From Antedon mediterranea (lineage: Eukaryota > Animalia > Echinodermata), in NCBI RefSeq assembly GCF_964355755.1, contig NC_092672.1:21961237-22025236 (forward strand): a stretch of 64,000 nucleotides of DNA. The letters run 5' to 3'. Both the position numbers and the translations under genes were made by a program. Shown piece after piece: positions 3,603 to 61,043 of this stretch (position 1 is its first letter; every line of letters begins with the position of its first letter). The notes below the pieces were generated by a model, which made no database searches, had not been told where the DNA came from, and saw only the letters and a program-made list of their open reading frames with translations.

Positions 3603-4008
3603 TGTAGTGAATATTTATCTTTTAGTTGGTTTCGAGCTTTCTCAGGCGTATATCCACTCGACGTACACTGCTGTCACTGAATGATAACTCATACAAAAAG
3701 TATATTTAACTCAACTAGAACTTTTATTCCTTGTAATTCGATTAATACATCTTTCTACCACTACCAGTCAAGCCTTAATATATTCTTTATCATTTTTCCG
3801 TTTATCTACTCTGATCTTATTCTCTCTTCTCCTCTTAATATCTATTACATTCCACTTTTATACTGGACATGCAAATTTTAGGCTTCAGAGGAGGATAACA
3901 TTTTCTCTCCAAAATTTATACGATTTTGATTGGCTAATAATATAAGACGGACCTGGTCTAAAGCATCCTTCTCTAAACACAGAGAATCACAACATCAATA
4001 ATATGACA
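3603..4008 (-). repeat. 3' LTR of the Gmr1-like element
   Basis: Matches 9242-9647 with 4 substitutions seen by eye; preceded on the minus strand by PPT AAAAAGGGGAA (4019-4009). Confidence 0.97.
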
Positions 4009-4110
4009 TTCCCCTTTTTGGGAAAAAGATTGTGTCAATCTTTCCAAAAATTTAACATTTAAAACCATTTTACTTTAAACTATCTACTAATAACACCTCT
4101 ATAATATTAT

Positions 4111-6100
4111 TTATGCACGGCTTAATACATCTGCATTTCCATTTAATGATCCTTTCTTGTAAATAACTTTAAATTTATATCCTTGTAAAAACAGAGCCCA
4201 TCTCATAAGTCTAACATTGGCACCCTTCATTGAGTCCATCCATCTCAATGTCTGGTGGTCAGTATGAACTTGAAATTCACAACCATACAGATAATACTTA
4301 AGTTTATTGATAGCCAAAACAATAGAGAGGCACTCTTTTTCTGGCACAGAATATCTCTGCTCATGTACAGATAACTTTCTACTTAAGTACACAATGGGAT
4401 AATCATTACCCTCACCATCTATTTGGCTCAGCACTGCACCTATGCCATAATTTGAGGCATCGGTTTGCAATATAAACATCTTATCAAAATTTGGGGCTTT
4501 TAATACATTATCATCAGTAAGTCGTTTCTTTAAAGTTACGAAGGCATTTTCACATTGTTCATTCCACTTAACGGTATTACTTTTACTCTTTAAAGTTAAA
4601 TCAATCAATGGCTTAGCAATATCGGCATAGTTCTGTACAAATTTTCTGTAATAGCCCGTTAATCCGAGAAATGATCGGACTTGTTTCTTAGACAAAGGTC
4701 TGGGAAACTTTTCCACAGCCTCAACCTTATCAATCATGGGTCTAATTTCTCCATTACCAATCTTATGCCCCAGAAATTCTACCTGAGCATAGGCAATTTT
4801 ACATTTCAAAGGCTTTGCTGTCAATCCAGCACTACTTAATCTTTCTAATACATCATTCAAATGAAAAATATGATCTTTCCAAGTTTGACTATAAATACAT
4901 ATGTCATCTATATATGCCTTAGCATATCCCTCAGTACCTTGTAATACCTTATCCATTAATCTTTGGAAAGTACTAGAGCTATTTTGCATACCAAATGGAA
5001 GTACATTGTAATAATACTGTCCAAATTGTGTAATAAATGCTGATTTGTCTTTGGTCTTAGGATCCAGAGGCACCTGGTAAAATCCTTTAGTTAGATCTAA
5101 CGTAGTTATGTATATTGCGGATGATACCTCATCCAACATTTCGTCTATGCGAGGCATAACATAAGGGTCAAATTGTGTAGTCTTATTTAGTGATCTAAAA
5201 TCTGTCTCCATTCTAATTTGATTCTGGCCTTTCTTCAGGGCAATAATAGGTGCAGCATAGGCACTAACTGTAGGTTCTATTATACCCATAGCCAACATAC
5301 TATCTAATTCTTCTTTCAATTTACCCTTTAATGCTTGGGGCGTTCTATATGCCCTATGCCTTATAGGCATTTCACCATTAGTCTTAATTTCATGTGTCAC
5401 TAAGTGAGTTCTACCTGGTACATCCGAGAATACATTCTGTTGGTACTTTAACAATTCTGTTAATTGTTTAGTTTGTGTATCATTTAAATTACTACTAACG
5501 TTAACATCTCTCCATGTTTGTGATTGATGATAAGACAATCCTATGTCTAATTCACTATCTAACTCATTGTCATAGACTGTTTCATTTAAGTCTACTTCTT
5601 CCATCGACTGAACATTTGTTACTACATAATAACCATCTTTACTTATTTCTACTTTATCATACCATCTCTTTAACATATTAACATGTAGAATTTGTTTTTC
5701 TTTTCTTCTACCTCCTATGTATATTTCATAATTTACATCATTGACCTTTTTTGTAACAGTGAAGGGGCCTTGCCATTTACTGTCTAACTTACTATTTCCT
5801 ACTGGAAGGAATATCAACACTTTGTCCCCTTCTACAAATTCTCTATCAATAGCATTCTTGTTATAATTGTGGGACATAATTTCTTGTTGTTCAAGTTTGT
5901 TTACATTAGCATCTTTCATTAATTCCTCCATTTTTTCTCTTATGTCTAACATGTATTTGATAACATCAGTAGATGTTTCTTCATCTTCTACCCAATTACT
6001 TTTGAGTAAACTCAAGGGTCCCCTCACCTCTCTACCATAAAGCAATTTAAAAGGTGAATGGCCCGTCGCTTTACTAGGAACTTCTCTGTATGCAAACAGA
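4111..6100 (-). pseudogene. pol: pol: integrase C-terminus (GPF/Y), reverse transcriptase and RNase H
   Basis: WQGPF, LDLTKGFYQ, LPFGM, YIDD, TDAS, EKECL, TDH and ADVLSR motifs; separated from the integrase core by a frameshift in a C-run near 6103-6107. Confidence 0.95.
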
Positions 6101-7148
6101 AAGGGGGTATGTAGTTATCCCAATTTTTTCTTTGCTTAACTGTAAGTGTCCTTAGCATATTTTTCAATGTACCGTGAAATCTTTCAACAAGCCCATTGCT
6201 TTGGGGGTGGTACACTGTAGTCAATAATTGATTAATCCCCAACATACTACATATAGATTGCATAATTGAAGACATGAAATTAGTTCCTTGATCATGTACA
6301 ATCTCTTCGGGTAATCCTACTCTAGTAAAGACTTCTATTAGAGCCCTGGCTACTGTTTCAGCTCTAACATTGGGTAACGGGATAGCATCCGGATATCTCG
6401 TAGCATAGTCAATTATAGTAAGCATATATTTGTTATTACGGCTTGTTCTAGATAAGGGTCCAACAATATCTATCGCTATACGTTTAAACGGTGTACTTAT
6501 AATCGGTAATGGTATCAAAGTATGTTTCCTTTTACTTTTACCCTTATCTACCTTTTGGCATTGCTTACAGACTTTACAATAGACTACCACATCTTTAAAT
6601 ATACCTGGCCAATAGAATTGGTTCAGGACCCTACTTTTAGTTTTCTCAACACCCATGTGACCTGCAAATGGCACATTATGACCTAAGTGTAATACACCCT
6701 GTCTACACTGAGTGGGTAATACAATCTGTTCCACTTGGTTATTCTTATCTTTAATACTACTCCAATTTCTCATCAATATACCTTGTCTCATAAAGAAACA
6801 TACCCTATGCTGACCTATTTCTTCTATAGGGACTACCCTGTCAAACACTCCTTTGAGTGAGTCATCATTAGTTTGCAATTTGATCAGTTCTTGTTTAGTT
6901 AGGTTCAGCTTGTGCTGTTGTTCATAAGTTTTATGTTTGACTGTTTTATCTTTAGCTTTATCCTCATTTTCGTCAAACAAATTATTCATTTCTGTTCCAT
7001 TCATATCATCTAAACACTTAGTTTTATTTACTTTGTTGTCATTTACTACTGTTTTCAAGAATTGTACATTAGTTTCTTTAGGCGGCTCTTCTATCGGCTT
7101 AAAGTTACTATCTTTCCCTAACAATATCATTTCGTATTCTACCATCAT
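6101..7148 (-). pseudogene. pol: pol: integrase (HHCC zinc finger and DDE core), upstream of RT
   Basis: H..PFAGH...C..CQ, IDIVGPL, DQGTNF and [17 protein letters not shown] motifs. Confidence 0.95.
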
Positions 7149-7509
7149 TTTCTATTCTGGCTTGCTCCCTAGTTAGGACGAACATTTCTTTAGCCATAGT
7201 TTCCCCACAATTCTGGTCCAAATCATGACCCAATAACATGTCCCTCTGTAATCCTTCGATTACGGCTACAATCACTTTTCCTGTCACTATCTTACTTTCT
7301 ATAGCTACCTCAGCTAAGGGGACGGTAATATCGCCTCCTATACCTCTTAACGTAACCCATTTTCCTGGCAAGTAACATTTGTTAGGCACTAGACTTTCCT
7401 TAACAGCTGACTGGGTACATCCCGAGTCTCTAAGCATAGTTATATCCTGTCCTAATTTTCCTGGTATTGTACACTTCTCCATTTTATTTTCTACACTGAT
7501 TTTATTCCT
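7149..7509 (-). pseudogene. Aspartic protease domain
   Basis: LRDSGCTQS catalytic motif, LLGHD, and VLTREQAR linker; out of frame with both neighbours. Confidence 0.88.
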
Positions 7510-8700
7510 TCACATCTTAAGCCATCTTTCACATTCGGGCCCTTCTTAGTGTCACTAGTCTTTCCTTTTGCTACCATCTTAGGACAATCCCCTATTTTAT
7601 GTCCCTTCTCCTTACAATTAAAGCATAGGCCATTAATCCATTCATTTGAAGGTTCTCTCTGTTGGAAATTTCTACCATAGTTATGGAATTTGCCTCCCCT
7701 TCCGCGATACCTATTGTATCCTTGCTGCCTAGCTCCAGGGTTATTCTGAGTCGTACCATTCTTAGGTTTACTATTTTCTTGGCCCTTATAATACGTAGGC
7801 TTTTTTTCAGAATTTACGGCATTCCAATAGCCACGTCCACCTCTATTAGCTATATAATCATCGGCTATCATAGCCATATCATAGCTCTTATTTACTTGTT
7901 TATCTCTAAGATAAAGCCTCAGATCTTCAGGCATTTTATCAAGTGTCTGTTCCATTATAATTATTTCAATAATGCCTGCAGCATCATCTTCTTTTACATT
8001 AGCACATTTCATCCAACATTTTAAATAATGGGAGAGCTCATTCAGCCATTCCCTGATGGACATATCTTTAACTCTCTTTGAATTTCTAAATTTAAATCTG
8101 TAGGTCTCTGCGGACACATCATACTTTTCTAAGATTGCCTTCTTTAAGGTATCATAATCTACACATTCTTTTACGGTTAAGGATGCATATGCTGTCCTAG
8201 CTTTACCAGACAGTTCAGGTGCTAACCTAGCGGACCACGTATTCTTATCCCAACCTGTGGCTTCTGCCAAGTGTTCAAATGTTCTAAAATATATATCAAT
8301 ATCATCTGATTCCTTCAAAGTAGGAACCTTTACCTTCATTTCATCTACTATATTCCTAGCATTACTGTAGCTAGACCTATTTTCTAATTCCATCATTTTC
8401 ACTCTTTCTTGTGATTCAATTTTTCTTTTTTTTTTCTTGTTCTCAATCTGCTTCTAATCTTAATTGGTCTTGTTGTTATTGTAATTCTAACTTTTTGTTT
8501 TCGGCCTCGGCCTCGAACTTCATTCGAAAATATTTGAGCATCATATCTTTAGGCATACCGCCGGGTATTTCAGGCAAATCAATATCCCTAGCCATGTTAT
8601 CATACATTTCATTGACTTGGTCAACCATATCTTCCCTAGGCCTAGTATCTTTGTCTGACATAGTCTTATCTATATTTTTACCCGATCTTAAAGTTGTCAT
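7491..8700 (-). pseudogene. gag: Gag with SCAN-like capsid C-terminal domain and CCHC knuckle; N-terminal part has two stops and a frameshift
   Basis: YFRTFEHLA, ETYRFKFR, IIMEQTLDKMPEDLRLYL and CFNCKEKGHKIGDC; lesions at 8410-8480. Confidence 0.9.
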
Positions 8701-9227
8701 GCTAATAACAATTTTACTAATGAAATATGTAAACTTATGTATACAAAATATGTTATAAAAGTATTTGTATTACCTTGATTCCATTCAGATATGTAAAAAT
8801 ATGAAATCCACATAAATTTTTAAATGCAATACAATCTAAGACATTAATTTACTTCAAAGTCACAAACAACGTTCCAAGTTCGCTCCGTACAAAAATTTAC
8901 TTTCGAAATAAAAATTAGTTTACAAAGTCAGCTTTGCAAATCTTCTCCAAATTTACTGGGCTTCCTTCTGTTACTTCAGTCTTCTTCTTTCAGACCTCGG
9001 TGAATATATACAGTATCTCCGATGAATATCCAGCAGTCTTGAGCTCAACAGTACTTCTTCTTCGTTGTAATATCCAAACAACGCACGGTATAAAAACTGT
9101 CAGGAATCCAGATCTTCGTAACCATTTAACTTTTTGGTTACTGATTTAACAGGCCCGTAGAGTAGGCACTGTCACTTCTTCTTCTTCTTCTTCTTCTTGA
9201 TACTTAAATCATGTAAACACAAATTTT

Positions 9228-9241
9228 CACCGCTGCCACCA
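9228..9241 (-). promoter_or_regulatory. Primer binding site complementary to the tRNA-Leu 3' end
   Basis: TGGTGGCAGCGGTG immediately follows the 5' LTR on the minus strand. Confidence 0.85.
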
Positions 9242-9647
9242 TGTAGTGAATATTTATCTTTTAGTTGGTTCCGAGCTTTCTCAGGCGTATATCCACTCGA
9301 CGTACACTGCTGTCACTGAATGATAACTCATACAAAAAGTATATTTAACTCAACTAGAACTTTTATTCCTTGTAATTCGATTAATACATCTTTCTACCAC
9401 TACCAGTCAAGCCTTAATATATTCTTTATCATCTTTCCGTTTATCTACTCTGATCTTATTCTCTCTTCTCCTCTTAATATCTATTACATTCCACTTTTAT
9501 ACTGGACATGCAAATTTTAGGCTTCAGAGGAGGATAATATTTTCTCTCCAAAATTTATACGATTTTGATTGGCTAATAATATAAGGCGGACCTGGTCTAA
9601 AGCATCCTTCTCTAAACACAGAGAATCACAACATCAATAATATGACA
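9242..9647 (-). repeat. 5' LTR of the Gmr1-like element
   Basis: 406 bp, TG...CA, about 99% identical to 3603-4008. Confidence 0.97.
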
Positions 9648-9657
9648 GCATTGTTAA

Positions 9658-12600
9658 AGTTGTATTGTCCCCCAAGACATGAAAAATGAAGATCAATTAA
9701 ATCAAATTTTGAATAGACCATATTGTAGCTATAATAAAGTTGTTCACTTTCGCCGAAAAAAAATCCGAAAAAAATTATTAATTTCGCTAAGAAAAAAGCA
9801 AAATAAGTTAATCAATTTTCCCAACTTGTCAGCTCAAAATTTAGGCCGATAGAGCTAACTCATAAATATGCATGATATGTTAATGAGCATCGACACAGCT
9901 GGGATCTGATCTAACAAACATGGATGATGCACGTTGTGTACAACAACACCCAACAACATCGACGCGACTGGGGGTTTCCCCTGATCGTATGTAAAGCTAA
10001 GCTGTTAATTTGTCGGTAAGTAGGCCTAGACGGTTATTTTAAATAAATAATAATTATATATATAACGCAAACTAGACAGACGTTTGTAATAACAGGAAGG
10101 TAATTAATTAACTTAGCCTGGGATTTTTTCAGGGCTAGGCCTAGAATAATACATGATAGGCCTAGGCTAGTAGTAGTAGTAGTAGAAGAGGAGGCAGGCA
10201 GCTGGGCTGGGACAATCGGGTCTCTGCAGAAAATGCCCAGCTAGGCCCTATACATTGTACTCTTCATAGACTGGCCTAGGCTAGGCCATCAATCCGAAAA
10301 TACAGCCAGCCTGCTGTACCATATACATAATTTACAGTTGAATCTTGTTTAACTAGTTTTTATGATAAAAATAAAACAAACATTTTTTCAGGAAAAATGG
10401 TTACAATACAACTTACAAGCCTGAAGTTGAGAACCTTCCTCCAGCAGCACTGTACAAGTAGACAGAGGGGAAAAGCCAGCTTAGCCATTTTACAACACAA
10501 ACTACTGTTCTTTACCATGTAACTCTGTACTGTAGTAAGTCAAATATTTGTTTTCTCTTTATTAAGTCTTAGTTGTAATGTGTTTTACCATAGAAAGTTA
10601 GTGTACTTATTTGTCAAAGCAAGCAATTTCACTAGCCCACATTTTGCACTAAATGTGCATGATCTAGACCTATTTATAAATACCAAATTCCAGGTTTTCG
10701 TACTTTGCCGAAATTAAAAACTTTAGATTTTGTGAAATATTTAACTTATTTATACATCATTATTTAAACATTTTTATTTAAAGACGTTGAACTGATGAAG
10801 ACTGGAACAGAGGTCACATTTGTACTTCATAAAGACAACTGATGATAGACTCTGTATATGATTGGATATTGCAAGAAAAATATTTGTGATGCTGCATTCG
10901 GCCAATATGTTCCCGTTCAGCTTGTAAAATGTTGTATAATTTTTTTTATAAAGCAATAATATTTGTACAGTATATTATTTTGTAAACATAACATTCAATA
11001 AATAAAAAATACTACTACAACAGTACACAGAATAAATTCTTCAATTTTACTTACACTTCATAATGTTACTGTAAATATTACAGTGCAAAAGGAGTTAATA
11101 AAAAATATATATAGGCCTATATACAGTTACAGTATATCTTATTGAATTCCTGTATTGTTTTTTGTGTCAATTTGTCTACTAATATCAATGTGTTGATTGT
11201 GGCAGTAATTACGGCAGCTATAGTCTTCTAAGATCGCTCATATCCATTACAAAGTGTCATTTTAATAGTAAGAAATGTTTCAATAAATTGTGAATGTTGC
11301 CACTGTACGATACATTTTGTGTTTCTCACTACTTCACTTGCTCTTATTGTTCAATCAATGTTAATACCTGAAAAAAAAGAAGAAAATTGTGTCAAATATC
11401 TGCATAAAATGGTTAATTGTGCAAATGTTGATTTGAACCTATTGCATTTGATGCAGAAAATATTTTTAAAATACTGTACAGTAAACATTCAAAACAATAT
11501 TTAGATTTATTTGGTAATTTTCTCTGCAGAATAGATAGTTGAAATCCTAACAAATTAAACCAATTCATCAGGATGCAAAACAAAATTATAAAACAAAAAT
11601 ACATCCCTCCTGGTGGTGGTCTAGCCCTAGCTAGTAGTGTACTGCCTAGCCTAGGCCTACTACCTCTACTTATAGAAACAGGAGGCAGCAGTAAGGCTAC
11701 TCGAGACTGCCTGCCATGTGGTTGTGCTAGTTAGTACTACTAGTATGTAGTAGACTAGTACAGTAGCAGAAAACTCGGGCCTAGGGCCTAGGCCTGGCTA
11801 GGCCTCTCCTGCTAGCGAAACAAAAACTCACCTAACTGAATAAGATTCAACATCAAAGTTACCAACTGCAGTTCGGCGCTAGTTCCGTTTCGCACCTGTT
11901 TTTATTTCGACTTCCTTTTGACTCCAAATTGTTAAGCAACTTATTGTGAATACCACACCTTAAAATTGGGCCTCATAAGTACTTTTATGAAGAAGAGTCA
12001 CATAAAAAGTAACAAATAAATCCTTAAATTGATGATTTTACAGACATGTTTCTCGCATACCGTTCGCGAATTTAGAATAGGCCTACTCGAAGTTCAATAT
12101 TTTCGTTTCTATGGAGCACCAAAAGAGCAACAACAATAGATGGTTACAAACTCAGTGGAATGCGTCTTCTTATTATTTATTATTGAAATACACGTTTAAT
12201 TTTAATATATTTTGTCAATAAAAATGCTTTAACATTTTACTGCTAACAGTGCTGTTTTCAAATAGCAACCTACCCTAGGCCTAACTAATAGTAAGACTAT
12301 AGACTAAGAGGAATATTATTTAGGCCTAGGCCTAGATCAGGTATACCTCTACTCTACAGCATGCAGTACATGTAATATGATGATGAATTTGTCGATTTTC
12401 ATTCCTAAAAGTTCCTGCAAAAACCATGTACAGTATCAACAGTAATATTTTTGTTGCATTGACAAAAAATTGAACGTAATTTTCACCAATAAATGCATTA
12501 AATATACGCAATTTACTGAGTTTTTAGCCCTCTGTTATGATTACTCTTTTGGCGCTCCATAGAAACAACAACATTGAACATGGAGTATGCGAAATTCACA

Positions 12601-13172
12601 AACCGATGTGCGAGAAACACGTCTGTAAATTCATCAATTTAAAGGATTTATTTTTTACTTTTTGTGTGATATCCTTCGTAAAAGTATTTTTGAGGCCTAA
12701 TTCTAAGGTGTGGTACTCACGATAAAGCTACTTAACCAATTTTGAGTCGAAATAAACGACAGGTGCGAAACGGAACTAGCGCCTGCAGTTCTACTTAGTA
12801 TTCTGCTAGCTATAGTTTTCGTGTTTTCTTCAAGATCGTCTCGCGTCACTACTCGACTCTCTCTATGCATTGCTATCGTCGCGTTGTTGGCTGTTTGTTG
12901 AGAGAACCATCATCCACAAGATGTATCCATACAATATGAATATTTATGAGCTAACTCAGGTCAAGGGTTAAATTAAACCGGAACACGTTTGTCTTCCAGA
13001 CAAATAGCTTCCGGTTGGTTAATTTTTGCTTTAAATTACGATTTTCTCGAGTAAAACATTTTTTTTTTCGATCCAATTTGAGTTCAAAGTGAATAACTTT
13101 TATGTGCAATTAAAATGGCCTATTCAACAAAAATATTTTAAAAAAAAATGTTTTCAGGGGGACAATACATCT
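9658..13172. mobile_element. Kolobok-like non-autonomous DNA transposon
   Basis: TIRs AGTTGTATTGTCCCC / GGGGACAATACATCT, TTAA on both sides (9654-9657, 13173-13176), AG...CT ends; the interrupted host repeat resumes afterwards. Confidence 0.85.
11875..12783. mobile_element. Foldback MITE, Merlin-like
   Basis: TIR GGCGCTAGTTCCGTTTCGCACCTG, inverted similarity extending roughly 400 bp, perfect 8-bp TSD TGCAGTTC (11867-11874, 12784-12791). Confidence 0.85.
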
Positions 13173-13756
13173 TTAAATGAAAATGTGGTAGATGAAAAAA
13201 TCAAAAACAACTATGTAAGGAAAAAATAAGCTTGTTAATGAAAATGTGTTACAGATAATAATATGTTTAAAAAGAGGAAGCTATGTAATCTATGTTATAA
13301 TATGTAAACAAATGAATAAAACTCTTTAAATAAGTATATGTAAACAAACATTCTAAATATAATGATATGTAGGCCTATAGTGTATAGTGAAAAATATATG
13401 TAAAGAGAACAGTTGTATGGAAATAAAAGTGGGATGAACTCACATAAGATAAAAAAAAAAAAACAATGTTCATTAATTATTCTAACTAATTATTTGTATT
13501 AATATCGTAAATGATTGAACAACCGATCTGCCGATGTAGGATAATATATCATAGTAATACAATATAACCAAAACATATGAGATTTCCAAAACCTTCTGCA
13601 ATACTCATCCGGCATTATTATCAGTGTTGATCCATCTTTTACGATATGTTGTTTATGATTTAACAACGAGTTAAAACAAAACTGTTGAGTTTTTTTGTGT
13701 ATTATTGAATAGCTTTCCATTGTTTTTATGACCAAGTTGAGTTTTATTAACTTGTT

Positions 13757-14028
13757 GAGGGTATTAAGCTATTGGTTTCCAGCTGATGAGTGCAATATGC
13801 ACTCCTGCATAGACAAATGCATGTTTCGTTTTATGCAGGAGATCCAATCAATAGCCACCTCCCTAACTGTAAGGATCGAAACAGCCATAACATCATCGAT
13901 AATATTTCCAATTCAAATATTTGATAATTAATAATTTAATGTAAAATAACACTTTTTAAAAAGTAATTTTCGAACATTTTCTAAACAAATTAAATGAAGA
14001 TGATGATATGACTGTCCTGGGATAAACC
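13757..14028 (+). ncRNA. Expanded type I hammerhead ribozyme-like RNA, copy A
   Basis: Stem I CCAG(13779-82)/CTGG(14017-20); core CTGATGA-G (13783-90), C-GAAA-C (13877-82) and GTC (14014-16); stem III CAGCCAT..CATCATC / GATGATG..ATGACTG. Confidence 0.8.
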
Positions 14029-15209
14029 CGTTTCAATTTTAAAAGTGTTTTTCATTTAATTTTGTTTTCGCAATGACTCCTACAAAATATAATTATGTCT
14101 GTTTATAACGAAAGAAAGCGCAATAGGGCCTAGCCTATATGATATAGTTACGTACGTCGTATGTGTTTTTTGTTTACCGTTTATAATTACATTTTTAAAC
14201 AATAATCCTTCAAATTCTAAATAGCCTATAGGCCTATAACTTGCCTTACAAAATACTTTGTACCTTTATAATCATAAATATTCTGATCATAAATGTTCTG
14301 ATCATGTTATTTATAGTTTACCCATTAGTCTAGCCTAGCTTGTCTGTTCCTTCTTCATCCTCATTCACCTCAATTTACCGAAAATTAGGCCAAGCCTAGA
14401 GATAGGAATAGGCCTACTACTAGTAGTACTTTTCAGATGCCTGTTTACACTCATATCATAGTAGTCCGAGTTCAAGTCCTTTTTTACACAAAGCAATATT
14501 CATAATTATATTATTGAGTATGGTGGTGTATGATAAACATTTTAATAAATATATGCACAAAATAGTTTTCACATTGTGTCTGGAGAGACCAAAATAATAA
14601 TAATATATATGCCTAGGCCTAGTAAAGCTTAGTATCAAAGACCTAGTATCAAATAGGCGGAAAGAGCCTAGGCCTACGTAGGATACGCACGGGGGCGGGT
14701 GTGGTAGGCTAGCGGATGAGGAAGGGGAGGGGGAGTCTGGCAAGGCAGGCTGCTGTACCTTTTTGACTTGCAATGCAACACAAGTATGAGCTTCTAGGCC
14801 TATATATATTTCAACTAAAGGAGCTACTATGATACTATATAGGGTATAACAATAAGGTGTAATTAATAAATATTAATCACAACGAATAAATCTACAAATT
14901 TATCAAAAACACCTACGGTTTGAATGCGTTGTACGTCGCTGCTAGTAGCCGACCGGGCTAGAATTGCTGTGGTCTGGTTACAAATTTAAATCAAGGCGGG
15001 AACGAGATGCGTAAATGTCACGCGCACGCAAGTTACCATGGCGCGCTGTGTGCTATTTTCACAAGCACATTCAATTTATAATTATTTTATGATAATTAAT
15101 TACAGGCCATACTAACGTGTCTAATTACAACTCCCTGGTGCGATGCTGTTACTCTGGAGTACTAATCTTAGGCCTATGTAAAGTTAATACAAACAAAATT
15201 GTAATTTTA

Positions 15210-15698
15210 AGAGTTTTTAGTTAGGAAATCCCATTCCATAAAACAATGAATGCTTAAAGCTGTCGTCAAGACAACCATGACTTTCCCCTAGAACTTCCCA
15301 CGCCTAAAGAGTTGAGTCAGTTTCTAAATATAGATATTGGTACCTGCTCTACAGTCTACACAAATTAAAGCCGGCCGTCCGACACACCAGACCACGTGAC
15401 TGTGTCAATGAACTGAACGAGAAGACTGCTGCTGCCTTTCTATGTTGACACTTTCAGAGTTTTTACTTAGGAAATCCCATTCCATAAAACAATGAATGCT
15501 TAAAGCTGTCGTCAAGACAACCACTTTCCGCTAAAACTTTCCACGCCTAATAAGTGGCGTCAGTTTCTAAATATAGATCTTGGTACCTGCTCTATAGTCT
15601 ACACAAAGAGATGCCGACAATTAAAGTCGTCCGACAAGCAAGACCACGTGAGTCAATAAACTGAATGAGGAGATTGCTGAATTCCTTGACACTTTTAG
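15210..15698. repeat. Tandem duplication, two copies of about 246 bp
   Basis: AGAGTTTTTA.TTAGGAAATCCC at 15210 and 15456, collinear similarity through TTGACACTTT. Confidence 0.9.
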
Positions 15699-16099
15699 GC
15701 TTATAATTAATATTCGAATAATTTTGCAAGAGGGGCGTTTACTCAACGAAAGCGTTATTTTTTTGGTGTAATACCATGGTACATGTATAATCAAATAGCC
15801 CCTATGAAAAATTACAACACAATTAATATAGAAGTGACAAAACATAGTAAAACTTGTATCAATATGCTTGGTAAATTGTAGATGAATGAATTCTACTACT
15901 AAAAATAGAAATCTGTTGTAATAGAATATTGTTGTTCCCTATCCAAATAAATACGGTAATATGAAAATAATTCTTTTTCCACTATAAAATACACATAATA
16001 CACATTATATATATATATATATATTTCTTTTATTCCTGTCCATCCAAGCAGCACTTGCCAGCTTTATACTATGACGTTATCCAAATTCCTTCACTTTTC

Positions 16100-16215
16100 T
16101 GGCTGTTTTACTTTTCGTTTTGATTTAGCTTTTTGCTTTATTTTGTATCTCCATTGAGATCCAGCCACTGATACCCACAGCATTGTCATTTTTTCAGTAA
16201 TTTGCCTTTGGATTT
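16100..16215. repeat. Dispersed repeat; inverted copy at about 35080-35190 and partial copy at 36121-36180
   Basis: Shared TTTTGATTTAGCTTTTTGCTT...CCACAGCATTGTCATT sequence. Confidence 0.7.
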
Positions 16216-16760
16216 ATATATATATATATTATATATATTAAAATGACAAGTACCTTATAGAAAAACATTGTAAAAATACAAAATACCGATCATTTCCTTT
16301 TGACATTTTGGCAAATTAAAACGCCATGTTGCATTTATTATGACGGATGCAAATCAAATTGTAAACAAAATTAGGCCTACTCATAGTTTTCTCCTTTTTA
16401 GTGATTAATTGGTCAATCTCATATTGCCGTACGAAAGTCATCATTTCATTTGTCTTTTTATTATGATATCGAGATAATTGTTTTGCACCAGTTAGCAAAT
16501 TCATTTCTATATACCCGTGTAATCTTCATATTTCACTATAATAATTACCATTCTAGAATACAGCTATAACAGTCAATGAAAACATTAAAATCTTTTTCAT
16601 TTAACGTATTTAATATAAAACCTTCAAAGCACTTCAAGACGGTAGGCCTATATTCATTGCAGCAAGACACTGTTGGTTGTTGTGAACGTTCAACCTTTCA
16701 GCAACTGTAGGATTTGTCTAAACATTATTTTTAACAAATTCAATTAGTATAAAAAAACTG

Positions 16761-17015
16761 GGTTTATTCCCAGGACAGCCATCATCATCATGTGTTTTAT
16801 AATAATTGATCTTTGCTGGACACAATTCAAAAAATACCTCATAAATATTTGTTTAAATAATAGCTTATTATTGATGATGCAATGGCTGTTTCGATCCTTA
16901 ATGTTATAGGAGGTAACTATTGATCGGATCTCCTGCATGAAACGAAACATGCATTGTCTATGCAGGAGTGCATATTGCACTCATCAGCTGGTAAACCAAT
17001 AGCGTTAATACCCTC
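16761..17015 (-). ncRNA. Expanded type I hammerhead ribozyme-like RNA, copy B
   Basis: Minus strand GGTTTA-CCAG-CTGATGAG...CGAAAC-AGCCAT...ATGGCT-GTC-CTGG-GAA-TAAACC; predicted cleavage between 16774 and 16773. Confidence 0.82.
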
Positions 17016-17679
17016 AACATATTAAAACAACTCAACTTGGTTATAAACATGTTAATCGAAAGGTATGGTGTAATAAGTAAATATAGTAAGGTAAATGTGA
17101 TGATAATACGATAAGAAATCAACTCGTTGTTAGTATTACCATGGAGAAATAAGTTAGGACTCCATGGTATTACTGAAGATGAGGTGTTAAATAATGATAT
17201 AATAATGTGAATAACTATAACGATCAAAGTAGCCGTGGCGGCGCAGCAAAAGGTTTGGTACATAAAGTAAACTGTCTTTAGAATTAATACTATTGTAAAA
17301 AGGGATGCACGGCTGGTTTGATCATTGTGGTACATGTATTTAAAACAAAAAATAACTCAATTCAAATCAAAAACAACATTAAACCTATATAATAAAATAA
17401 TAACTTACCGTCTGTTACGAATTACTGTATTACCTAATGAAATGAATACACCGGCGATTTCGAAATTAAGACGCACCAATGTTACGCTAAATATTAAGTT
17501 TGTGGAAGAGTAGAGAAGTCCAAATCCCGTCTCAATGCTAAATAGATGGTCTCAACTCTCGATTACAAATCCCACTAATCGATGGAATCATTAAACAAAT
17601 CCCGCCATGATATTGCTAAATGAATTCATGCTTAGCCGATGATAGGGACAAATCCCGTCTATCCTTATCCCGTCGTAGC

Positions 17680-18098
17680 GGCGGGATCCCGAACAAAAAA
17701 ATCCTGGTTGACCGATGGGAGCCACAAACCAAATGACCGAATCCCGCCATCCCGAATTTGCGATATTTTCCCGATCCCGACGGGATGGCCGTTTATCACC
17801 GGGATCCCGTGATATCACGAATTTGCGATCTTTTCCCGATCCCGATCCCGGTGGGATGGCCGATTCTCACCGGGATCCCGTGATGTCCCGATTTTGCGAT
17901 TTTTTCCCGATCCCGATCCCGGCGGGATGGCCGATTCCCACCGGGATCCCGTGATATCCCGAATTTGCGATGTTTTCCGGATCCCGATCCCGGCGGGATG
18001 CGCGAATCCCGGTGGGATTCGGGCATCCCGGCGGGATCCCGTGACATCCCGGTGGGATCCCGGCGAGATCCCGCATTTATTTTTTATGGGGATCTGTA
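17680..18098. repeat. GC-rich array of ~70-bp units built from CGGGATCCCG/ATCCCG motifs, probably subterminal repeats of a DNA transposon
   Basis: Units begin C.CGA.TTTGCGAT at about 17751, 17817, 17887 and 17958; many palindromic GGGATCCC motifs. Confidence 0.85.
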
Positions 18099-18152
18099 AT
18101 TCAGTATCAATGGTCAAGAACGTCAACCTTATTGAAAGTTAATCATAATCAA

Positions 18153-37199: not shown

Positions 37200-39222
37200 G
37201 AGTGTTGACAAAGTGCGAGGCAGCGAGGCAAGCGAGGCATGCCAAATATTTGTGCGAAGCATCATGTTATCATTTCCAAAAGTGCGAGGCATGCGAGGCA
37301 TATAGTTTACAATTTCAAAAAGGTGCGAGGCATATCTTAACGTGCTATTATGCTATATTATAGGCCTATAATAATCAATCGATACAAGCGTATCTAAATA
37401 GATTCGTGTATACACTCATCATGTTATTTATTTTTATGTAACGATTGTTTTTTCATTCAAGTCATATCGTGTCAAATTTTACTTTTACAAAAGTGCCCAA
37501 ACTACGGTGAACGACAGTCTTCAACTTTCGATAAACAATAATTGTTATAGCGACACACTCATCAAATGATTGCAATGTTTGTTGGCATTTCGAGCGTGTT
37601 CACTCACATGTCTCTCGAACATAGCAGAGTGAAAATAATATTTTGTCACACCCCTGCGCCTAGATCCGGTAGACCCGAGAGATGGAAAATTCCTCTTTAC
37701 TATTTAGCAGGTAGCGGAATGATTCAGCCCTCAGCTCAGAGGATTGTGGTGCATTCCCCTACTATAGCACGTGGTTTCAGCAGCAACGCACAGACTTCTC
37801 TCTGAGCGGCGTGCCAAAGACATTTTTGACATTCCATTCTCTAGGAACAACACGTGTACCTCTCTCGCAAATAAGGTGAACAGCGATTGCCAGGACAAGT
37901 TCAATAACTGGCGGTGAATAAAAGGTAACTGATATGGCGATCCAATAACATGCCGCAAAGGAAAAAATTGCAACAGAATTCTGGAGCGCGTGTGAAAAAA
38001 GACTTATGTCCGACAATTGCAATACTAGGCCTAAAATTAAACTTTAGCTAATATGCTTAGCCCTAACCTAAATAAAAGGCCTATGTAGAAAATAATTTAA
38101 TCAATTTTGATATAATAATAATTGGTGTAATATTTAATAATGATACACTATTCCTGTTTTAGTAAGCTAGGTATATTACGAACGATTTTTATTTATTGTT
38201 GTCCATGTACGTACTAATAAACCTGGCGCTAGTTTCCTTCGCTTGTATTTTTACTCCAAATTTGATAACTAACTTTATCGTGTGAATACCACACCTTAGA
38301 AGTATACCTCATGAGTACTTTAATGAAAGAATCACATAAAAAGTGACAAATAAATCCTTAAATTAATGATTTTATATGCGTGTTTCTCGCACACTGTTCG
38401 CGAATTTCACTTATTCAATGTTCAATATTTTTGTTTCTATGGAGCGCCAAAAGAGCAACGATAATGGAGGACTAAAACTCAGTGGAATGCGTCAATTTCT
38501 CATGCATTTATTGGTGAAAAACACGTTTTATTTCAATATATTTGTTAATTTGTCAATAAAAATGCGGTAATATGTTACTGCTGATACTGTTCTGTTTTCA
38601 AAGAATAATAATCGATCCTAAATCAACATCGCTACCTAGTCCAGACCTAGGACATCCTACTAAGGATATTATGATGAATTTTTATATTTTATTCTTTAAA
38701 AGGTTAACGAAACCGTGTACATTATCAACAGTAACATTTTTCCTTACTGACAGTGACAAAATCTATTGAAATTGTACTTGATTTTCACCAAATAATGCGT
38801 TAAATATAAATGGATTCCACAGAGTTTTTAGCCCTCTAATTAATTTTGCTCTTTTGGCGTTCCATAGAAACCAAAATATTGAACATTGAGTGTGCGAAAT
38901 GCGAGAAAAACAACGTCTGTAAAATCACCAATTTAATGGATTTATTGTTACTTTTATGTGATTTACTACTAATTCTAAGCTGTGGTATTCAGGATAAAGT
39001 TGGTTAAAATACAAGGCAGGTGCAAAAGGAAACTAGCCTAGCGGGCCTAGGCCTAGGCTACTTCAATTTCGGTGATTTCCTGCCTTGCAATTTTGAGAAA
39101 TGATAAAATGATGCCTCGCATTTTTTGATGATGGTAAAACGATGCCTCGGATAAATTTCTGACTTGCCTCGCATGCCTTCCCTGCCTCGCGTGCCTCGCT
39201 GCCTCGCACTTTGTTACTACCC
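37200..39222. mobile_element. MULE-like non-autonomous element with GCGAGGCA subterminal repeats
   Basis: Inverted ends G.GT..T.ACAAAGTGCGAGGCAGCGAGGCA and perfect 9-bp TSD GGCATATAC (37191-37199, 39223-39231). Confidence 0.88.
38225..39038. mobile_element. Second, more degenerate copy of the Merlin-like foldback MITE
   Basis: GGCGCTAGTTTCC start and collinear similarity to 11875-12783 (TGTGAATACCACACCTTA, TTTCTATGGAGC.CCAAAAGAGCAA). Confidence 0.8.
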
Positions 39223-46539: not shown

Positions 46540-46840
46540 TGTAGAGGCAATTTGCATATGTGTTAGCAGGTGTAACGAACGGCATGCAAACCTTTTTATT
46601 CTTTGTCTCTCTCTCTCAACTACCGACCGTCGAACAAGCAGGACGTATTTATTTTACTTACCGTTGTATGTTAACACAAGGAACTTTGCGTATCCTGTAC
46701 ATGTACAGAAGAAACCATTATTATTGGAATATATTATGTGTATATAATTACGGAGCCAAGTATAAGAAGTTACTAATGATATTTGAACCCAATGCATGCT
46801 CTCACAACACAGTATAGTGGGTAAGTTGGATCTCACTAAA
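46540..46840 (+). repeat. 5' LTR (TG...AA)
   Basis: Differs from the 3' LTR by 2 substitutions and one CT unit, counted by eye. Confidence 0.96.
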
Positions 46841-46841
46841 G

Positions 46842-46859
46842 TGGTGACCCCGACGTGAT
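46842..46859 (+). promoter_or_regulatory. Primer binding site, tRNA-Trp
   Basis: TGGTGACCCCGACGTGAT, the 18-nt complement of the tRNA-Trp 3' end. Confidence 0.93.
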
Positions 46860-46991
46860 CTAACGAGAGTGCTTGGAATATTTAAATATTTTTTCTTCGT
46901 CGTTGTTGCAAGATTACTTTGAGTTGTCGTTGTTTGATACGTGAATGGAATTATGGCGAGACCTTCTCCGGGAAGAGCTACACCGATCAAA

Positions 46992-47804
46992 ATGGCCGCT
47001 AGAATGAATGAGGCACCACCTGTGGCGGCTGCTGTAAGTTTAAAATTGCCGCCATTTTGGCCGAATGACCCACTTATTTGGTTTGCGCAAGTGGAGGCTC
47101 AGTTTGTTACCAGAGGAATTACGGCTGAGGAAACAAAGTATTCGTATATAATTGCTTCTTTGCCGCCTAATATCGCACAGGAGGTTCGGGATTTATTGCT
47201 AAGCCCTCCATACCAGAGACCATATACCCATTTGAAATCGGAATTGGTTAAAAGGACATCCGTGTCGGAGCAAAAGCGTCTTCATCAGTTGTTAACAACG
47301 GAAGAATTAGGTGATCGCAAGCCTAGTCAGTTACTACGCAAGATGTACCAATTGCTGGGGGATCGTGATTTAGAGAAATCCATCCTGAAACAGTTGTTTG
47401 TGCAAAGATTGCCTACTAATGTTCAATTGATATTAGCGTCCACCCGTGAAGATATGGACCTTTCAGATCTGGCAGCGTTGGCCGATAAAATTTTGGAAGT
47501 TTCTCCACCACCACCTACTATTGCCACGACAATTAAGGATACGGGTGCACGCGCAACGTCAGACGAATTAAGAGAATTGAGAGCTGAGGTTAGTAAGTTG
47601 ACCAGCCTCGTTTCTTCCTTGGCGAAACAAGTCAGAGGCAGAAGCCGTAGTAAACAACGTGAAAGCCGAAAACGCTCGCCCTCTGCTACATCTAATGATG
47701 GTTTATGCTGGTATCATCATCGATATGGTAACAAGGCACATAAATGTAATTCACCATGCTCTTTTTCCTCACAGAAGGCGGGAAACGACCAAGCCAGCGA
47801 CTAG
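46992..47804 (+). CDS. gag: Gag, CsRn1 type
   Basis: [31 protein letters not shown] and [18 protein letters not shown] (CHCC) motifs. Confidence 0.94.
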
Positions 47805-47845
47805 AGACGGCGACAGCTGCTGGCGTTGGTGAAGGTAGTCGTCTA
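47780..47845 (+). promoter_or_regulatory. -1 ribosomal frameshift signal
   Basis: Slippery heptamer G GGA AAC in Gag phase (47780-47786) in the gag/pol overlap, followed by stem CCAAGCCAGC / GCTGGCGTTGG. Confidence 0.85.
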
Positions 47846-50800
47846 TTTTTTATTTCTGATCGTACTTCGGGACTTAGATTCTTAGTTGACACTGGAGTGG
47901 AGGTTAGCGTGTTACTTCCATCAATGACAGACAAGTTGCACCGGAAAACTGACTTTGTATTGCAAGCAGTAAACAAATCTACAATATCTACTTATGGGGA
48001 GCGTTCCTTAACAGTTGATTTTGGATTTCGACGCACGTATAGGTGGATATTTACTGTTGCTGATGTGCCTAATGCGATTATTGGGGCCGATTTTTTACGA
48101 CGTTTTGGTTTAATTGTGGACTTAAAAAATCGCCAACTTGTCGATGCTACTACTAGTATCAGTGTCAAGGGAATAGAATGTACCCTAGCATCACTTAGTC
48201 CGGTCTTTCCGACCCCAAAAGTAAATCCTCCTTTTCAGGAAATATTAAACAAATATAAAACGATTACCAAACCATGTTTTCGTAATGGAAGCGTGAAACA
48301 TAATGTTACACATCAGATAAATACAAATGGGCTGCCAGTTTGTGCCAGACCTCGCCGATTGTCTTCTGAGAAATTGAAAATTGCACGGGCTGAATGTGAT
48401 CATATGTTACAATTAGGAATTATACGGCCCTCAGATAGTAACTGGTCGTCGCCGCTACACATGGTGCCTAAAGGAACAACAGGTGATTGGAGGCCATGTG
48501 GGGACTACCGAGCGTTAAATAATGTGACTGTTCCAGATATGTACCCCATCCCTCACATTCATGACTTTACCGCGACTCTCTCGGGTTGCAAGATTTTTTC
48601 TAAGATAGATTTGGTACGTGCATATCATCAAATACCCGTCGAACCTAAAGACATTTCAAATACCGCTATTACTACGCTGTTTGGCATGTTCGAGTTCTTA
48701 AGAATGCCATTTGGTCTTCGAAATGCGGCACAGTCATTTCAGCGTTTTATTGACCAGGTGTTGCGGGGTATGAATTTCGTGTATGCTTACATTGATGACT
48801 TACTTATTGCCAGCATGGATACTGCTGAACATGAATTGCATCTTCAGGCACTTTTTAAACGTCTCGATGAATTTGGTATCATTGTTAATCCGTCCAAGTG
48901 TGTATGGGGTGTGTCTTCACTACAATTTTTAGGTCATCAAATTAACGAGTTTGGGATACAGCCATTGCGTTCCAAGGTTGAGGCAATTGAACAGTTTCCA
49001 GTACCAGATACTGTGCGTAAATTACGTGAGTTTCTGGGATTAATTAATTTCTACAGACGGTTTATACCTAGATGTTCGGATTTGATTCATCCATTAACTG
49101 ATTTACTTGTCGGTAAACCTAAAAAGGCGATTGAACTATCTCCGACGGAAATTGAATCGTTCAACAAGGTCAAGTATGCACTCGTCGAATCAACTCTTCT
49201 AGAACATCCACATCCTGACGCTGCATTGTGTTTAATGGTAGATGCGTCCAATTGCGCTGTAGGTGGTGTGTTGCAACAAATGGTAGCAGGGATTTGGCAT
49301 CCACTTGCATTTTTTTCCCGACGTCTAAATCCGGTGGAAAGGAGATATAGTACTTTTGGACGGGAATTACTAGCTACCTATCTTGCAGTTAAGCATTTTC
49401 GCCACGTTCTAGAAGCTAGAACATTTTATATCTTAACTGACCATAAACCTTTAACACACGCATTACGTTCCAGCGCAGATCGATATTCGCCGCGAGAGAT
49501 ACGTCACTTAGACTACGTCTCACAGTTTACCACGGACATTCGACACGTCAAGGGTAGCGAGAATACCGTAGCAGACGCACTGTCACGTATGGACTTGAAT
49601 GCAGTGTCAGCTTCATCGGAGCTTTCTATTGATTATGACGTCATGGCTAGGCACCAGCAAAAAGATGCGGAGTTGCTCGAACATCAGCATAAGTCTGTTT
49701 TCAAGTTGAGAGACGTACCGATAGCGACTAGCGGCGGTACTATTGTATGCGATGTCACCACTGGTAATCATAGACCATTCGTGCCCAAAGGTATGCGTAG
49801 GTTAGTGTTTGACTCTTTGCATTCACTTTCTCATCCAGGGATTCGAGCTTCACTAAAATTAATCGCTTCACGGTATGTTTGGCCTGGTATGAACAGTGAT
49901 GTGCGGACATGGGCTAAGTGTTGTTTAAAATGCCAGAAGAATAAGGTTCATCGCCACACTGTGACACCATTAGGTACGTTTGCGACGCCCGACATAAGAT
50001 TCGACCACGTCCACATAGACTTGGTAGGACCACTACCTGTATCGGATGGTTATACTTACCTACTCACATGTATCGATCGCTTTACAAGATGGCCAGAGGC
50101 CATATCAATCACCAATATTACCGCTGAAACTGTAGCCAAAGCGTTTGTCACTGTTTGGGTATCCAGATTCGGTGCGCCATCCACCATCACTACAGACCGT
50201 GGTCGTCAGTTCGATTCGGCACTATTCACCGCCCTATCTAACATGTTGGGCACAAAACGCATTCGAACAACATCTTACCATCCTATGTCAAATGGATTAG
50301 TTGAACGTTTTCACCGCCAATTAAAGGTTTCGCTTAAGGCTCAAGATGATCCTCAGAAGTGGAGTGAAACTTTACCTTTAGTTCTTCTGGGTCTCCGGAC
50401 AGCGGTCAAAGTTGATTTAGGCTGTTCTTCATCGGAACTGGTGTATGGAGCAACCCTGAAACTTCCAGGGCAGTTTGTCGCGCCTACTGATATCGCCTCA
50501 CATGAGCCTGCGAATTACGTACATAGATTGCAAAGACACATGCAGAATATTCGACCAGTGCCAACACGAGCGAATCAACGCACCGCACAAATCCACGATT
50601 TGCGTGAATGTACTCACGTGTTTGTTCGTTGCGATAGCGTAAACAAACCTCTTCAGTCTCCTTACAATGGGCCATTTAAAGTTTTAAACAGAACTGACAA
50701 ATACTTTGTTTTGAGCATCGCAGGTAAACATGAAACTGTTAGTTTGGACAGACTAAAAGTCGCCTATGTAAATAATGGTAAAGCTATTAACAACTTTCCA

Positions 50801-50935
50801 GAATCGTCAAGGCAACCGGAAGCAGGGCTTTCCCCAACCGCAAGTGCTATTCCAGTCGCACCTCCACCACGGCAAACGCGTAGCGGACGACATGTACACT
50901 GGCCACGTAAGCTTGCAGATTATGATTGCGGTTGA
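47786..50935 (+). CDS. pol: Pol polyprotein PR-RT-RH-IN, expressed via -1 frameshift
   Basis: [37 protein letters not shown] and YNGPF motifs; no stops. Confidence 0.96.
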
Positions 50936-51036
50936 AGAAATTCTGTTAGTTTATTGTGCTGGAAGTTTTATACTAGAATCATTTTTTTTTATTCATCGCT
51001 CACTAACATTTCATTTGCGATCTAGAGGGGAGCTGA

Positions 51037-51335
51037 TGTAGAGGCAATTTGCATATGTGTTAGCAGGTGTAACGAACGGTATGCAAACCTTTTTATTCTT
51101 TGTCTCTCTCTCAACTACCGACCGTCGAACAAGCAGGACGTATTTATTTTACTTACCGTTGTTTGTTAACACAAGGAACTTTGCGTATCCTGTACATGTA
51201 CAGAAGAAACCATTATTATTGGAATATATTATGTGTATATAATTACGGAGCCAAGTATAAGAAGTTACTAATGATATTTGAACCCAATGCATGCTCTCAC
51301 AACACAGTATAGTGGGTAAGTTGGATCTCACTAAA
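51037..51335 (+). repeat. 3' LTR (TG...AA)
   Basis: Ends CTCACTAAA, followed by TSD ATAC at 51336-51339. Confidence 0.96.
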
Positions 51336-60595: not shown

Positions 60596-60753
60596 TGTTG
60601 GCTCTAGTATGATTAAATATATACTGTTTTGTATTTTTTTGTGTGTGTGATGAAATAAATAACGACAATAGCTAAATTAAATCTCAATTGTATTTTCGTT
60701 GGTTCTGAAAAGAACCGTTTGGTTTGAAAAAGTTTGCTGATCATAAATATCAT

Positions 60754-61043
60754 TTATGCATTTGGTGTCTTCTTCCTTTGAAGAGGTGAGTCATCAATAG
60801 TTTGGTCAACAATTTGGCTGCGGCAGTTGCCTCTCCTGGATGCCTTGGAACAGTTCGCAGCTACATACAGTGCATGCATATTGTGGCCAAACTGCATTGA
60901 TGTTGGGTTTGTGTTACTTCCACCACATCCTCTCTGTTTACTGAAGTACCGTTCTAACGGATCTTGATTATACTTCGCACTTAGAACACACTCTACCCCT
61001 GGCAGGTCCAGTAATTTTTTAGTCAACTCTACAAACGAATTAA
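60754..61043 (-). pseudogene. Last exon of a P-element/THAP9-type transposase (RNase H catalytic E region)
   Basis: Acceptor CAG at 61046-61044; NSFVELTKKLL...LSAKYNQDPLERYFSKQRGCGGSNTNPT...RGNCR; upstream exons not found. Confidence 0.88.

Follow-up and report, generated by a model that had tools for sequence, protein, structure and literature searches.

Hammerhead-type units in the window

Two related units of the hammerhead type lie in the window, the whole stretch of 64,000 nucleotides that was analysed. They stand about 3 kb apart in inverted orientation, each as a single unit, and units of this family measure 260-275 nt. Their parts are as follows.

13754-14029 (+): copy 1 unit, hammerhead in type I order
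13754-13778 (+): 5' leader of copy 1; its P0 strand 13757-60 can pair with 13858-61 and its P1 strand 13768-77 with 13846-55
13779-13782 (+): 5' strand of stem I (CCAG), placed by folding
13783-13789 (+): core segment C3-A9 (CUGAUGA); its last GA competes with GA 13839-40 for UC 13803-04
13790-13802 (+): inserted hairpin A, of 5 bp (7 bp at most, when the register slides); stem the same in both copies
13803-13840 (+): inserted hairpin B, with an 8-bp base and a variable distal part
13841-45 (GAUCC) and 13873-77 (GGAUC) (+): the helix modelled as the true stem II; its loop has 27 nt, the first 10 of them complementary to the leader
13878-13881 (+): core segment G12-A15.1 (GAAA), placed by the core pattern
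13881-97 and 13999-14015 (+): stem III, about 14 bp, with an AU-rich, unconserved loop of 101 nt
14016 (+): C17, with the cut predicted on its 3' side from hammerhead geometry
14017-14029 (+): 3' strand of stem I (CUGG, 14017-20) and conserved tail to AAACCC, the predicted released fragment
17018-16760 (-): copy 2 unit, hammerhead in type I order, with the same parts as copy 1
17018-16992 (-): leader of copy 2
16991-88 and 16773-70 (-): stem I of copy 2
16987-81 (-): core CUGAUGA of copy 2
16980-68 and 16967-31 (-): hairpins A and B of copy 2
16930-26 and 16897-93 (-): modelled stem II of copy 2
16892-89 (-): GAAA of copy 2
16774 (-): C17 of copy 2

Both copies contain every nucleotide of the catalytic core (C3 U4 G5 A6 N7 G8 A9, G12 A13 A14, the A15.1-U16.1 pair and H17) in type I order, and each has a stem I of 4 bp, a stem III of about 14 bp and the cleavage site GUC. 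Cleavage in hammerheads takes place 3' of C17. An earlier, sequence-only reading of this DNA had described a complete core at both loci, about 88 nt between CUGAUGA and GAAA and an AU-rich stem III loop of about 100 nt. These points were confirmed, with 88 nt measured for the first distance (13790-13877) and 101 nt for the loop of copy 1.

A permissive search pattern for type I, made up of a stem I of 4 bp, CUGANGA, a helix of 4 bp that runs up to GAAA, a stem III of 3 bp and UH, matched three times in the real window, two of the matches being the copies, compared to seven matches in 300 resampled 64-kb windows. The third match, at 35669, was discarded as a chance event, as it has no partner copy and sits in an apparent hAT transposase remnant. 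Folding of the whole units gave z-scores of -3.4 and -2.4 for the two copies. The comparison with Rfam hammerhead models suggested in the sequence-only reading produced no match at gathering score in the window, nor at E <= 10 over positions 13000-18000, as is expected because the inserts are this long; that region is also without any other credible Rfam family. A covariance model built on the two sequences matched five times in the window, namely at the two copies, on their two reverse strands and once at E 2.6, and thus revealed no third copy there.

Stem II, the inserted hairpins and the leader

Without the leader, both copies reach their lowest energy as a full hammerhead with a five-way junction composed of stem I, hairpin A, hairpin B, the GAUCC/GGAUC helix and stem III. 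Under these conditions, the pairing probability of stem I is 0.96 in both copies, and that of stem II is 0.98 in copy 1 and 0.66 in copy 2. The GAUCC/GGAUC helix stops right at G12 and opens with a G-C pair, as stem II does. Moreover, the first 10 nt of its loop (13846-55) are complementary to 13768-77, the strand leading into stem I. The pairing between leader and loop II begins at the distal end of both stem I and stem II, and a second short helix (13757-60 with 13858-61) is possible after P1. The calculated duplex energies, -18.1 kcal/mol in copy 1 and -15.0 kcal/mol in copy 2, were matched by 23 and 54 of 5000 loop shuffles, respectively.

Since the third hairpin adjoins GAAA directly and its loop pairs with the strand into stem I, it is, on the folding models, an ordinary stem II; in other words, stem II is kept and not replaced. 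Likewise, the helix between leader and loop II is, as modelled, a stem I-II pseudoknot like that of other hammerheads. The sequence-only reading, which had overlooked this pairing and also the conserved upstream block described below, proposed instead that three abutting hairpins form a three-helix domain in place of stem II, with none of them acting as stem II. The three hairpins are indeed present and abut with zero unpaired bases between them, and the part of the proposal that falls is the replacement, as the third hairpin has both the position and the tertiary contact of stem II, leaving A and B alone as unusual. A domain of that kind would agree with register 1, in which the G that follows CUGAUGA belongs to another helix than the C that precedes GAAA, and with chrysovirus hammerheads, which cut slowly with a helix II of 1 bp or none, but it leaves unexplained a hairpin that reaches G12 directly, starts with the usual G-C and pairs through its loop with the stem I strand; it is regarded as highly improbable.

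With stem II present, the unusual part is therefore the 51-nt insert composed of A and B (13790-13840). The gap from CUGAUGA to stem II is 51 nt in every register of both copies, where a direct junction would allow at most 1-2 nt. The oddity of these units is predicted to consist of two extra hairpins plugged between CUGAUGA and stem II.

The exact site of the insert depends on the register of the junction. GA 13788-89 and GA 13839-40 are each able to pair with UC 13803-04, and a 2-nt slide gives three positions for the insert: behind A9, behind G8 or behind U7. The folds of the three registers lie within 0.4 kcal/mol of one another (-39.5, -39.4 and -39.1 in copy 1; -33.9, -33.8 and -33.5 in copy 2). 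The A9-G10.1 linkage is weakly favoured as the insertion site because the first GA (13788-89) has no variant among the 38 variant rows from sequencing-run contigs, the second GA varies (G13839 is changed in a low-depth contig) and a one-base insert is known at this linkage in a viroid. De la Pena and Flores reportedly described, in 2001, a CChMVd (+) hammerhead with a natural extra A between A9 and G10.1. It shares with the present units a natural insertion at the favoured linkage and differs from them in its length, 1 nt as opposed to 51.

Nested folding with the leader included, a procedure in which pseudoknots cannot be scored, yields probabilities of 0.0 for both stems I and II in copy 1, outcompeted by the leader, and has the leader displace both stems in roughly half of the copy 2 ensemble. 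The leader could therefore inhibit instead of assist. In copy 1, pairing of the leader at the expense of stems I and II gives a fold that lies 2.9 kcal/mol below the hammerhead; in copy 2 the order is reversed, with the modelled hammerhead lower in energy. Additionally, a duplex between the 3' tail and the leader is possible (-9.8 and -9.1 kcal/mol in copies 1 and 2), in competition with P1 and P0.

These energies bear on the possibility that the units are switches or scaffolds, in which the RNA is made and its fold selected, with cutting poor or dependent on a cue because the core is kept inactive by the paired leader and the sliding insert. Such a role would account for the lower leader-paired fold of copy 1; the 10-bp P1 together with P0 would need to thread loop II, and three registers of equal energy would dilute any one active state. 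It is weakened by the fact that the pseudoknot lies beyond the scoring of nested folding, by copy 2, for which the hammerhead fold is the lower one, and by the agreement of 18 of 19 columns in the cleavage triplet and the 3' strand of stem I, on the far side of an unconserved loop of 100 nt. Such a role is considered quite unlikely, and an insert or leader that keeps the core off would be the main risk to the reading of the units as active ribozymes.

Conservation between the copies and in sequencing-run contigs

The two copies are identical at 134 of 147 columns of the 5' domain and at 18 of 19 columns of the 3' end, as compared to 46/102 in the stem III loop, 51/129 far upstream and 53/123 downstream, which bears out the earlier statement that core and helices are nearly invariant and loops are not. 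Differences occur at 2 of 93 core or paired positions versus 11 of 54 elsewhere (p 3e-4, a value inflated by the drawing of the modelled pairs on the same sequences). None of the 26 positions in the stems of A and B differs between the copies. All modelled pairs (40/40) are kept in both, the two changed pairs being one-sided wobbles in P1, and between the two copies no pair is changed on both sides. As the pairs were drawn on the same sequences and no two-sided change occurs, the pattern is one of conservation, not covariation.

The inverted arrangement of copies only 3 kb apart and the lack of two-sided covariation would also suit a neutral relic, in which recent duplication or gene conversion has kept an old duplicate similar and the RNA is under no selection. 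Such a process would hardly produce an identity that passes from 91% to 45% and back to 95% at helix borders within 280 nt, nor changes that shun paired positions, and a neutral origin is given very little credence. Both copies are, as judged from their sequence, real hammerhead-type RNA under selection.

Variant contigs came from four runs, which represent three samples and three studies (runs X1 and X3 derive from one sample). The runs indexed as containing the sequence belong to one organism label, apart from a small low-coverage run, and none of them is listed as RNA. Nine of the 38 variant rows fall in loop III, eight in unpaired loop II and five in distal B, the rest being scattered. A single row concerns the 15 core positions (register 1 numbering), namely G5>A in one decayed-looking contig. 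Pairing is preserved by C>U in stem II and, if the 3' partner is unchanged, by C>U in stem I. U13803>G, found in a contig class with a depth of 58 of 410 in X1, breaks the perfect junction. The changes G13839>A, G13838>A, A13833>C, G5>A and C13779>A, which break pairing or core, each occur in single low-depth contigs.

Copy number and genomic context

In run X1, depth reaches 309 in the contig over 16926-17024, 168 in that of the copy 1 type and 103 in that of a second copy 2 type, with single-locus contigs at 32-42; the corresponding values in run X5 are 62, 40, 29 and 12-22. Run X5 was treated as DNA, as its coverage extends over every one of the 30 bins into which the 4.7-kb stretch was divided, and its depth ratios resemble those of X1, a DNA-type run. 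The ratios over single-locus depth, about 3-9, correspond to a copy number of about 10 or fewer and point to approximately 4-9 intact copies, contig depth being a rough guide only. Some contigs hold the leader only, or a broken core, next to unrelated flanks, and these are read as decayed copies. Thus, the search for more copies suggested in the sequence-only reading found intact and decayed ones in the run contigs and none further in the window. A depth of about three times the single-locus value is also seen in contigs from the region upstream of copy 1, 14960-15242 and the region downstream of copy 2, and the inverted pair appears to have been duplicated as a block of about 4 kb. Several copies have these flanks of about 4 kb in common, which indicates segmental duplication.

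No tandem array of the unit was found in the window. Among the 72 stop-free frames of at least 48 aa in the 9.6-24 kb region, none matched a reverse transcriptase (RT) or GIY-YIG domain, and five weak, unrelated matches remained below the cut-off. There is no clear target duplication either, the flanks having only 7-nt AT-rich words in common. Because there is no tandem array and no RT or endonuclease remnant in the 72 frames, a mobile RNA is not indicated, and a small gene family fits better. The earlier suggestion of an unusual family belonging to a mobile RNA or gene class is thereby narrowed: a multi-copy structured family unlike the usual metazoan forms stands, and the mobile RNA is left without array or RT remnant.

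These data also bear on the case for a low-copy non-autonomous retroelement, either SINE-like or the end of a LINE or Penelope element, whose ribozyme would prepare the RNA end for a borrowed RT and whose conservation would reflect selection for mobility. Dispersed, truncated and decayed copies with unrelated flanks are what such an element leaves behind, the units contain Pol III box-like words, and metazoan type I hammerheads come mostly from retroelements. On the other hand, array, RT remnant and clear target duplication are all missing and the copy number is low; the flanks of about 4 kb common to several copies point to segmental duplication; the upstream block is shared; and the loops are wholly different with ends that are near identical. 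A retroelement origin is therefore considered unlikely, and the small gene family remains the preferred reading.

Exact-pattern scans were extended to other collections, with no stretch and then eight stretches found in viral contigs, 18 in metagenome contigs and none in prokaryote genomes. The 26 viral and metagenome loci were read as chance matches, and none of them fits the two-sequence covariance model at E <= 1.

Transcription signals

Conservation between the copies starts about 45 nt upstream of the leader. The features found there are listed below.

13709-13753 (+): conserved upstream block of copy 1, with 36 of 48 columns identical and, some 29 nt ahead of the leader, a TATA-like word
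17019-17066 (-): upstream block of copy 2
13661-13672 (+) and 17132-17121 (-): a 12-nt word common to both upstream regions, with spacing that differs by 21 nt

The upstream block is also kept by diverged copies in other contigs, and a promoter can be inferred there. The 12-nt word has only these two matches in the window at up to one mismatch; the signal is weak, as 9 of 100 shuffles give at least two matches, and a distal promoter word or a relic of duplication is possible.

Pol III signals were sought with A- and B-box patterns that represent consensus sequences. A B-box-like word occurs at 13874-82 in copy 1 and at 16896-88 in copy 2 (the pattern appears once per 6400 nt in the window), and this match is mostly dictated by the hammerhead core. 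An A-box-like word is present in copy 2 only, at 16998-88, 20 nt after G17018 (one occurrence of the pattern per 1333 nt), with copy 1 one base off. A T7 run at 16757-16751 (-), directly after the conserved 3' end of copy 2, is a possible terminator, and internal T4-T6 runs are found in both units, at 13829, 13953 and 16834. Transcription of the units by Pol III is taken as a lead only, and it is disfavoured by the internal T4-T6 runs, the imperfect A box of copy 1 and the core-fixed B box. No tRNA genes were found, and a sigma-70 promoter scan, irrelevant here, gave matches at chance level only.

Comparison with known hammerheads

The strand between CUGAUGA and stem II is treated as uninterruptible by Eckert 2023 (PMC10085705), according to which no insert longer than 2 nt was known at this place. 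A one-nucleotide insert after core A6 leads to low activity. Variants with additional helices or other permutations do exist according to PMC13725137, which cites Weinberg 2015, Eckert 2023 and Forgia 2023, and the Weinberg variant is identified as the PK hammerhead in PMC11300833. The published full text searched yielded no natural hammerhead in which helices separate CUGANGA from stem II, an earlier report in Weinberg 2015 or in supplements being possible. The two-hairpin core insert thus appears to be a hammerhead build undescribed in print.

The closest likeness lies in the pseudoknot hammerheads of Perreault 2011 (PMC3088659), where a stem I-II pseudoknot is given for about 40% of hammerheads and is needed for speed. 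These RNAs have, like the present units, a full core, a Watson-Crick helix between loop II and the stem I strand, and a long stem III. The pseudoknot tested there has 6 bp, whereas 10 bp and a second short helix are modelled here, and the core variants in the sections devoted to them are single-nucleotide changes, in contrast to a 51-nt two-hairpin insert in an animal-type genome. In the PK hammerhead (Zhan et al. 2024, PMC11300833), an extra helix and a pseudoknot are likewise located near the core; the pseudoknot there replaces helix II and helix IV is on the helix I side, whereas helix II is kept here and two hairpins lie in the core strand. The non-circularly permuted hammerheads of Eckert et al. 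2023 (PMC10085705) illustrate that the core tolerates odd wiring, and they differ in that the block order here is ordinary type I (C-G-S) with the break inside block C.

Metazoan non-LTR retrozymes, as presented in Cervera and de la Pena 2020 (PMC7229834), are also type I, found in animal-type genomes, a few hundred bases in unit length and low in GC. They form head-to-tail arrays, hundreds to thousands of motifs and circles, in contrast to the single units on opposite strands and about 10 copies or fewer found here. Retrozymes are recognised by repeats of 150-450 bp that follow one another head to tail and carry a hammerhead each, where the window has two single copies on opposite strands, an arrangement that allows no unit-length circle. 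Hammerheads of Penelope-like elements (PLEs) resemble the units in type I order, in inverted arrangements and, in fungal and protist forms, in a large helix III (PMC4209133; Craig et al. 2021, PMC8557442). Cervera and de la Pena 2014 (PMC4209133) and PMC8557442 depict the metazoan PLE hammerheads as minimal, with little or no helix III, placed in pLTRs by an RT gene, while here no such gene was found in 72 frames. A short or absent helix III marks PLE and LINE hammerheads, and stem III has about 14 bp in the present units.

Proposed role and mechanism

A small multi-copy family of stand-alone RNA genes, whose transcripts would cut themselves after C14016 or C16774 to set their own 3' end, is given a slightly better than even chance on the modelled structures. 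Cleavage at the predicted site, taken by itself, is probable. The full proposal, put forward tentatively and somewhat doubtful when all its parts are taken together, is that of a dedicated class of animal small-RNA genes, with an active hammerhead, a two-helix side arm sliding by two bases, a leader threaded through loop II, and self-cleavage that would mature the 3' end of an undescribed RNA of 250 nt.

Transcription would start near G13754 and G17018, behind the conserved upstream block, from a Pol III or snRNA-type promoter. During synthesis, the leader would pair with loop II and join stem I to stem II, in the way that the pseudoknot of other hammerheads does. Hairpins A and B, which abut each other and stem II, may stack into a single side arm that traverses the core strand, with A9-G10.1 as the likeliest crossing point; the geometry of a perfect helical junction suggests that stem II would then remain stacked beneath G12-A9. 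Branch migration by 2 nt could let either GA act as G8-A9 and in this way tune the rate. In the proposed folding order, the leader would settle onto loop II, then stems II, III and I would close, and the RNA would be cut after C17.

In hammerhead chemistry, G12 acts as the base and the 2'-OH of G8 as the acid. The long stem III would let a single copy cut in cis, with release of a tail of about 13-20 nt, and the product would be an RNA of 245-263 nt with a 2',3'-cyclic phosphate. Pairing between tail and leader may tether the substrate strand before the cut and would be displaced afterwards. One cut per transcript would yield no retrozyme-type circle. Since loop III is free to change, the role of the RNA would rest on the conserved 5' domain.

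Significance

Hammerhead searches assume that CUGANGA abuts stem II, which makes RNAs of such a build invisible to Rfam models and descriptor scans. If the unit cuts, a whole layer of natural hammerheads may have been missed, and the core would have an unused insertion point for engineering. In its active and threaded form, the structure would break the rule that CUGANGA runs straight into stem II and would provide a new docking site at the core. The sliding junction offers a clean test of which GA acts as G8-A9. Additionally, a low-copy, conserved and non-tandem hammerhead unit would be a candidate domesticated ribozyme gene, and it bears on the question of what role hammerheads have in animals outside mobile elements.

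Other features of the window

Several other interpretations of the two loci were rejected. Pfam hints of FAST_1 and RAP between the copies are below the cut-off, on opposite strands and in stop-filled frames. A C/D-box snoRNA reading of CUGAUGA and AUGAUGA has no Rfam match, and these words are explained by the core and stem III. A telomerase template in loop II is not kept by copy 2. Sliding folds between the copies, the units aside, gave z < -3 in only three windows, which correspond to AT-rich repeats or to a hairpin upstream of copy 2. This strong hairpin (17133-17166, window z -3.7) is absent from the deeper paralogous contig.

The surroundings of the units contain further structures. At 13915-14380, an X1 contig of depth 16 links 13914 to 14381, a join that would delete the cleavage site of copy 1 and that may be false, its short side having 27 letters. 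The segment 14750-15240 is multi-copy, with CpG-rich, promoter-looking words; it is present in all three covered runs, its depth in X6 exceeds that of the ribozyme, and it gave neither a fold signal nor a protein match. A tandem duplicate of about 245 bp, 83% alike, lies at 15206-15679, with one copy skipped in other contigs, and a degenerate GC-rich tandem repeat at 17749-18100 adjoins copy 2.

The window as a whole is AT-rich and full of retroelement remains, and TAGGCCTA occurs 52 times in it, compared to 0.6 expected from base composition, features that suggest an invertebrate such as an echinoderm. A Gypsy-type LTR retrotransposon, recognised by motifs, occupies 3603-9647 (-), with several broken frames and 406-bp LTRs that are 99% alike. 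A second Gypsy-type element at 46540-51335 (+) has long open gag and pol frames and 301-bp LTRs that are 98.7% alike, and it is followed by a LINE RT fragment at 51149-52906 (-). Related MITE-like elements with long inverted arms are found at 11864-12790 and 38246-38963. Finally, a histone 3' stem-loop match at 60675-60721 (-) reaches 34.7 bits in Rfam (cut-off 34) and has a U-A pair at a place where the consensus is presumably C-G. It lies about 30 nt after the stop of the frame 60754-61086, which is read as a remnant of a P-element/THAP9-like transposase, with no histone gene nearby.
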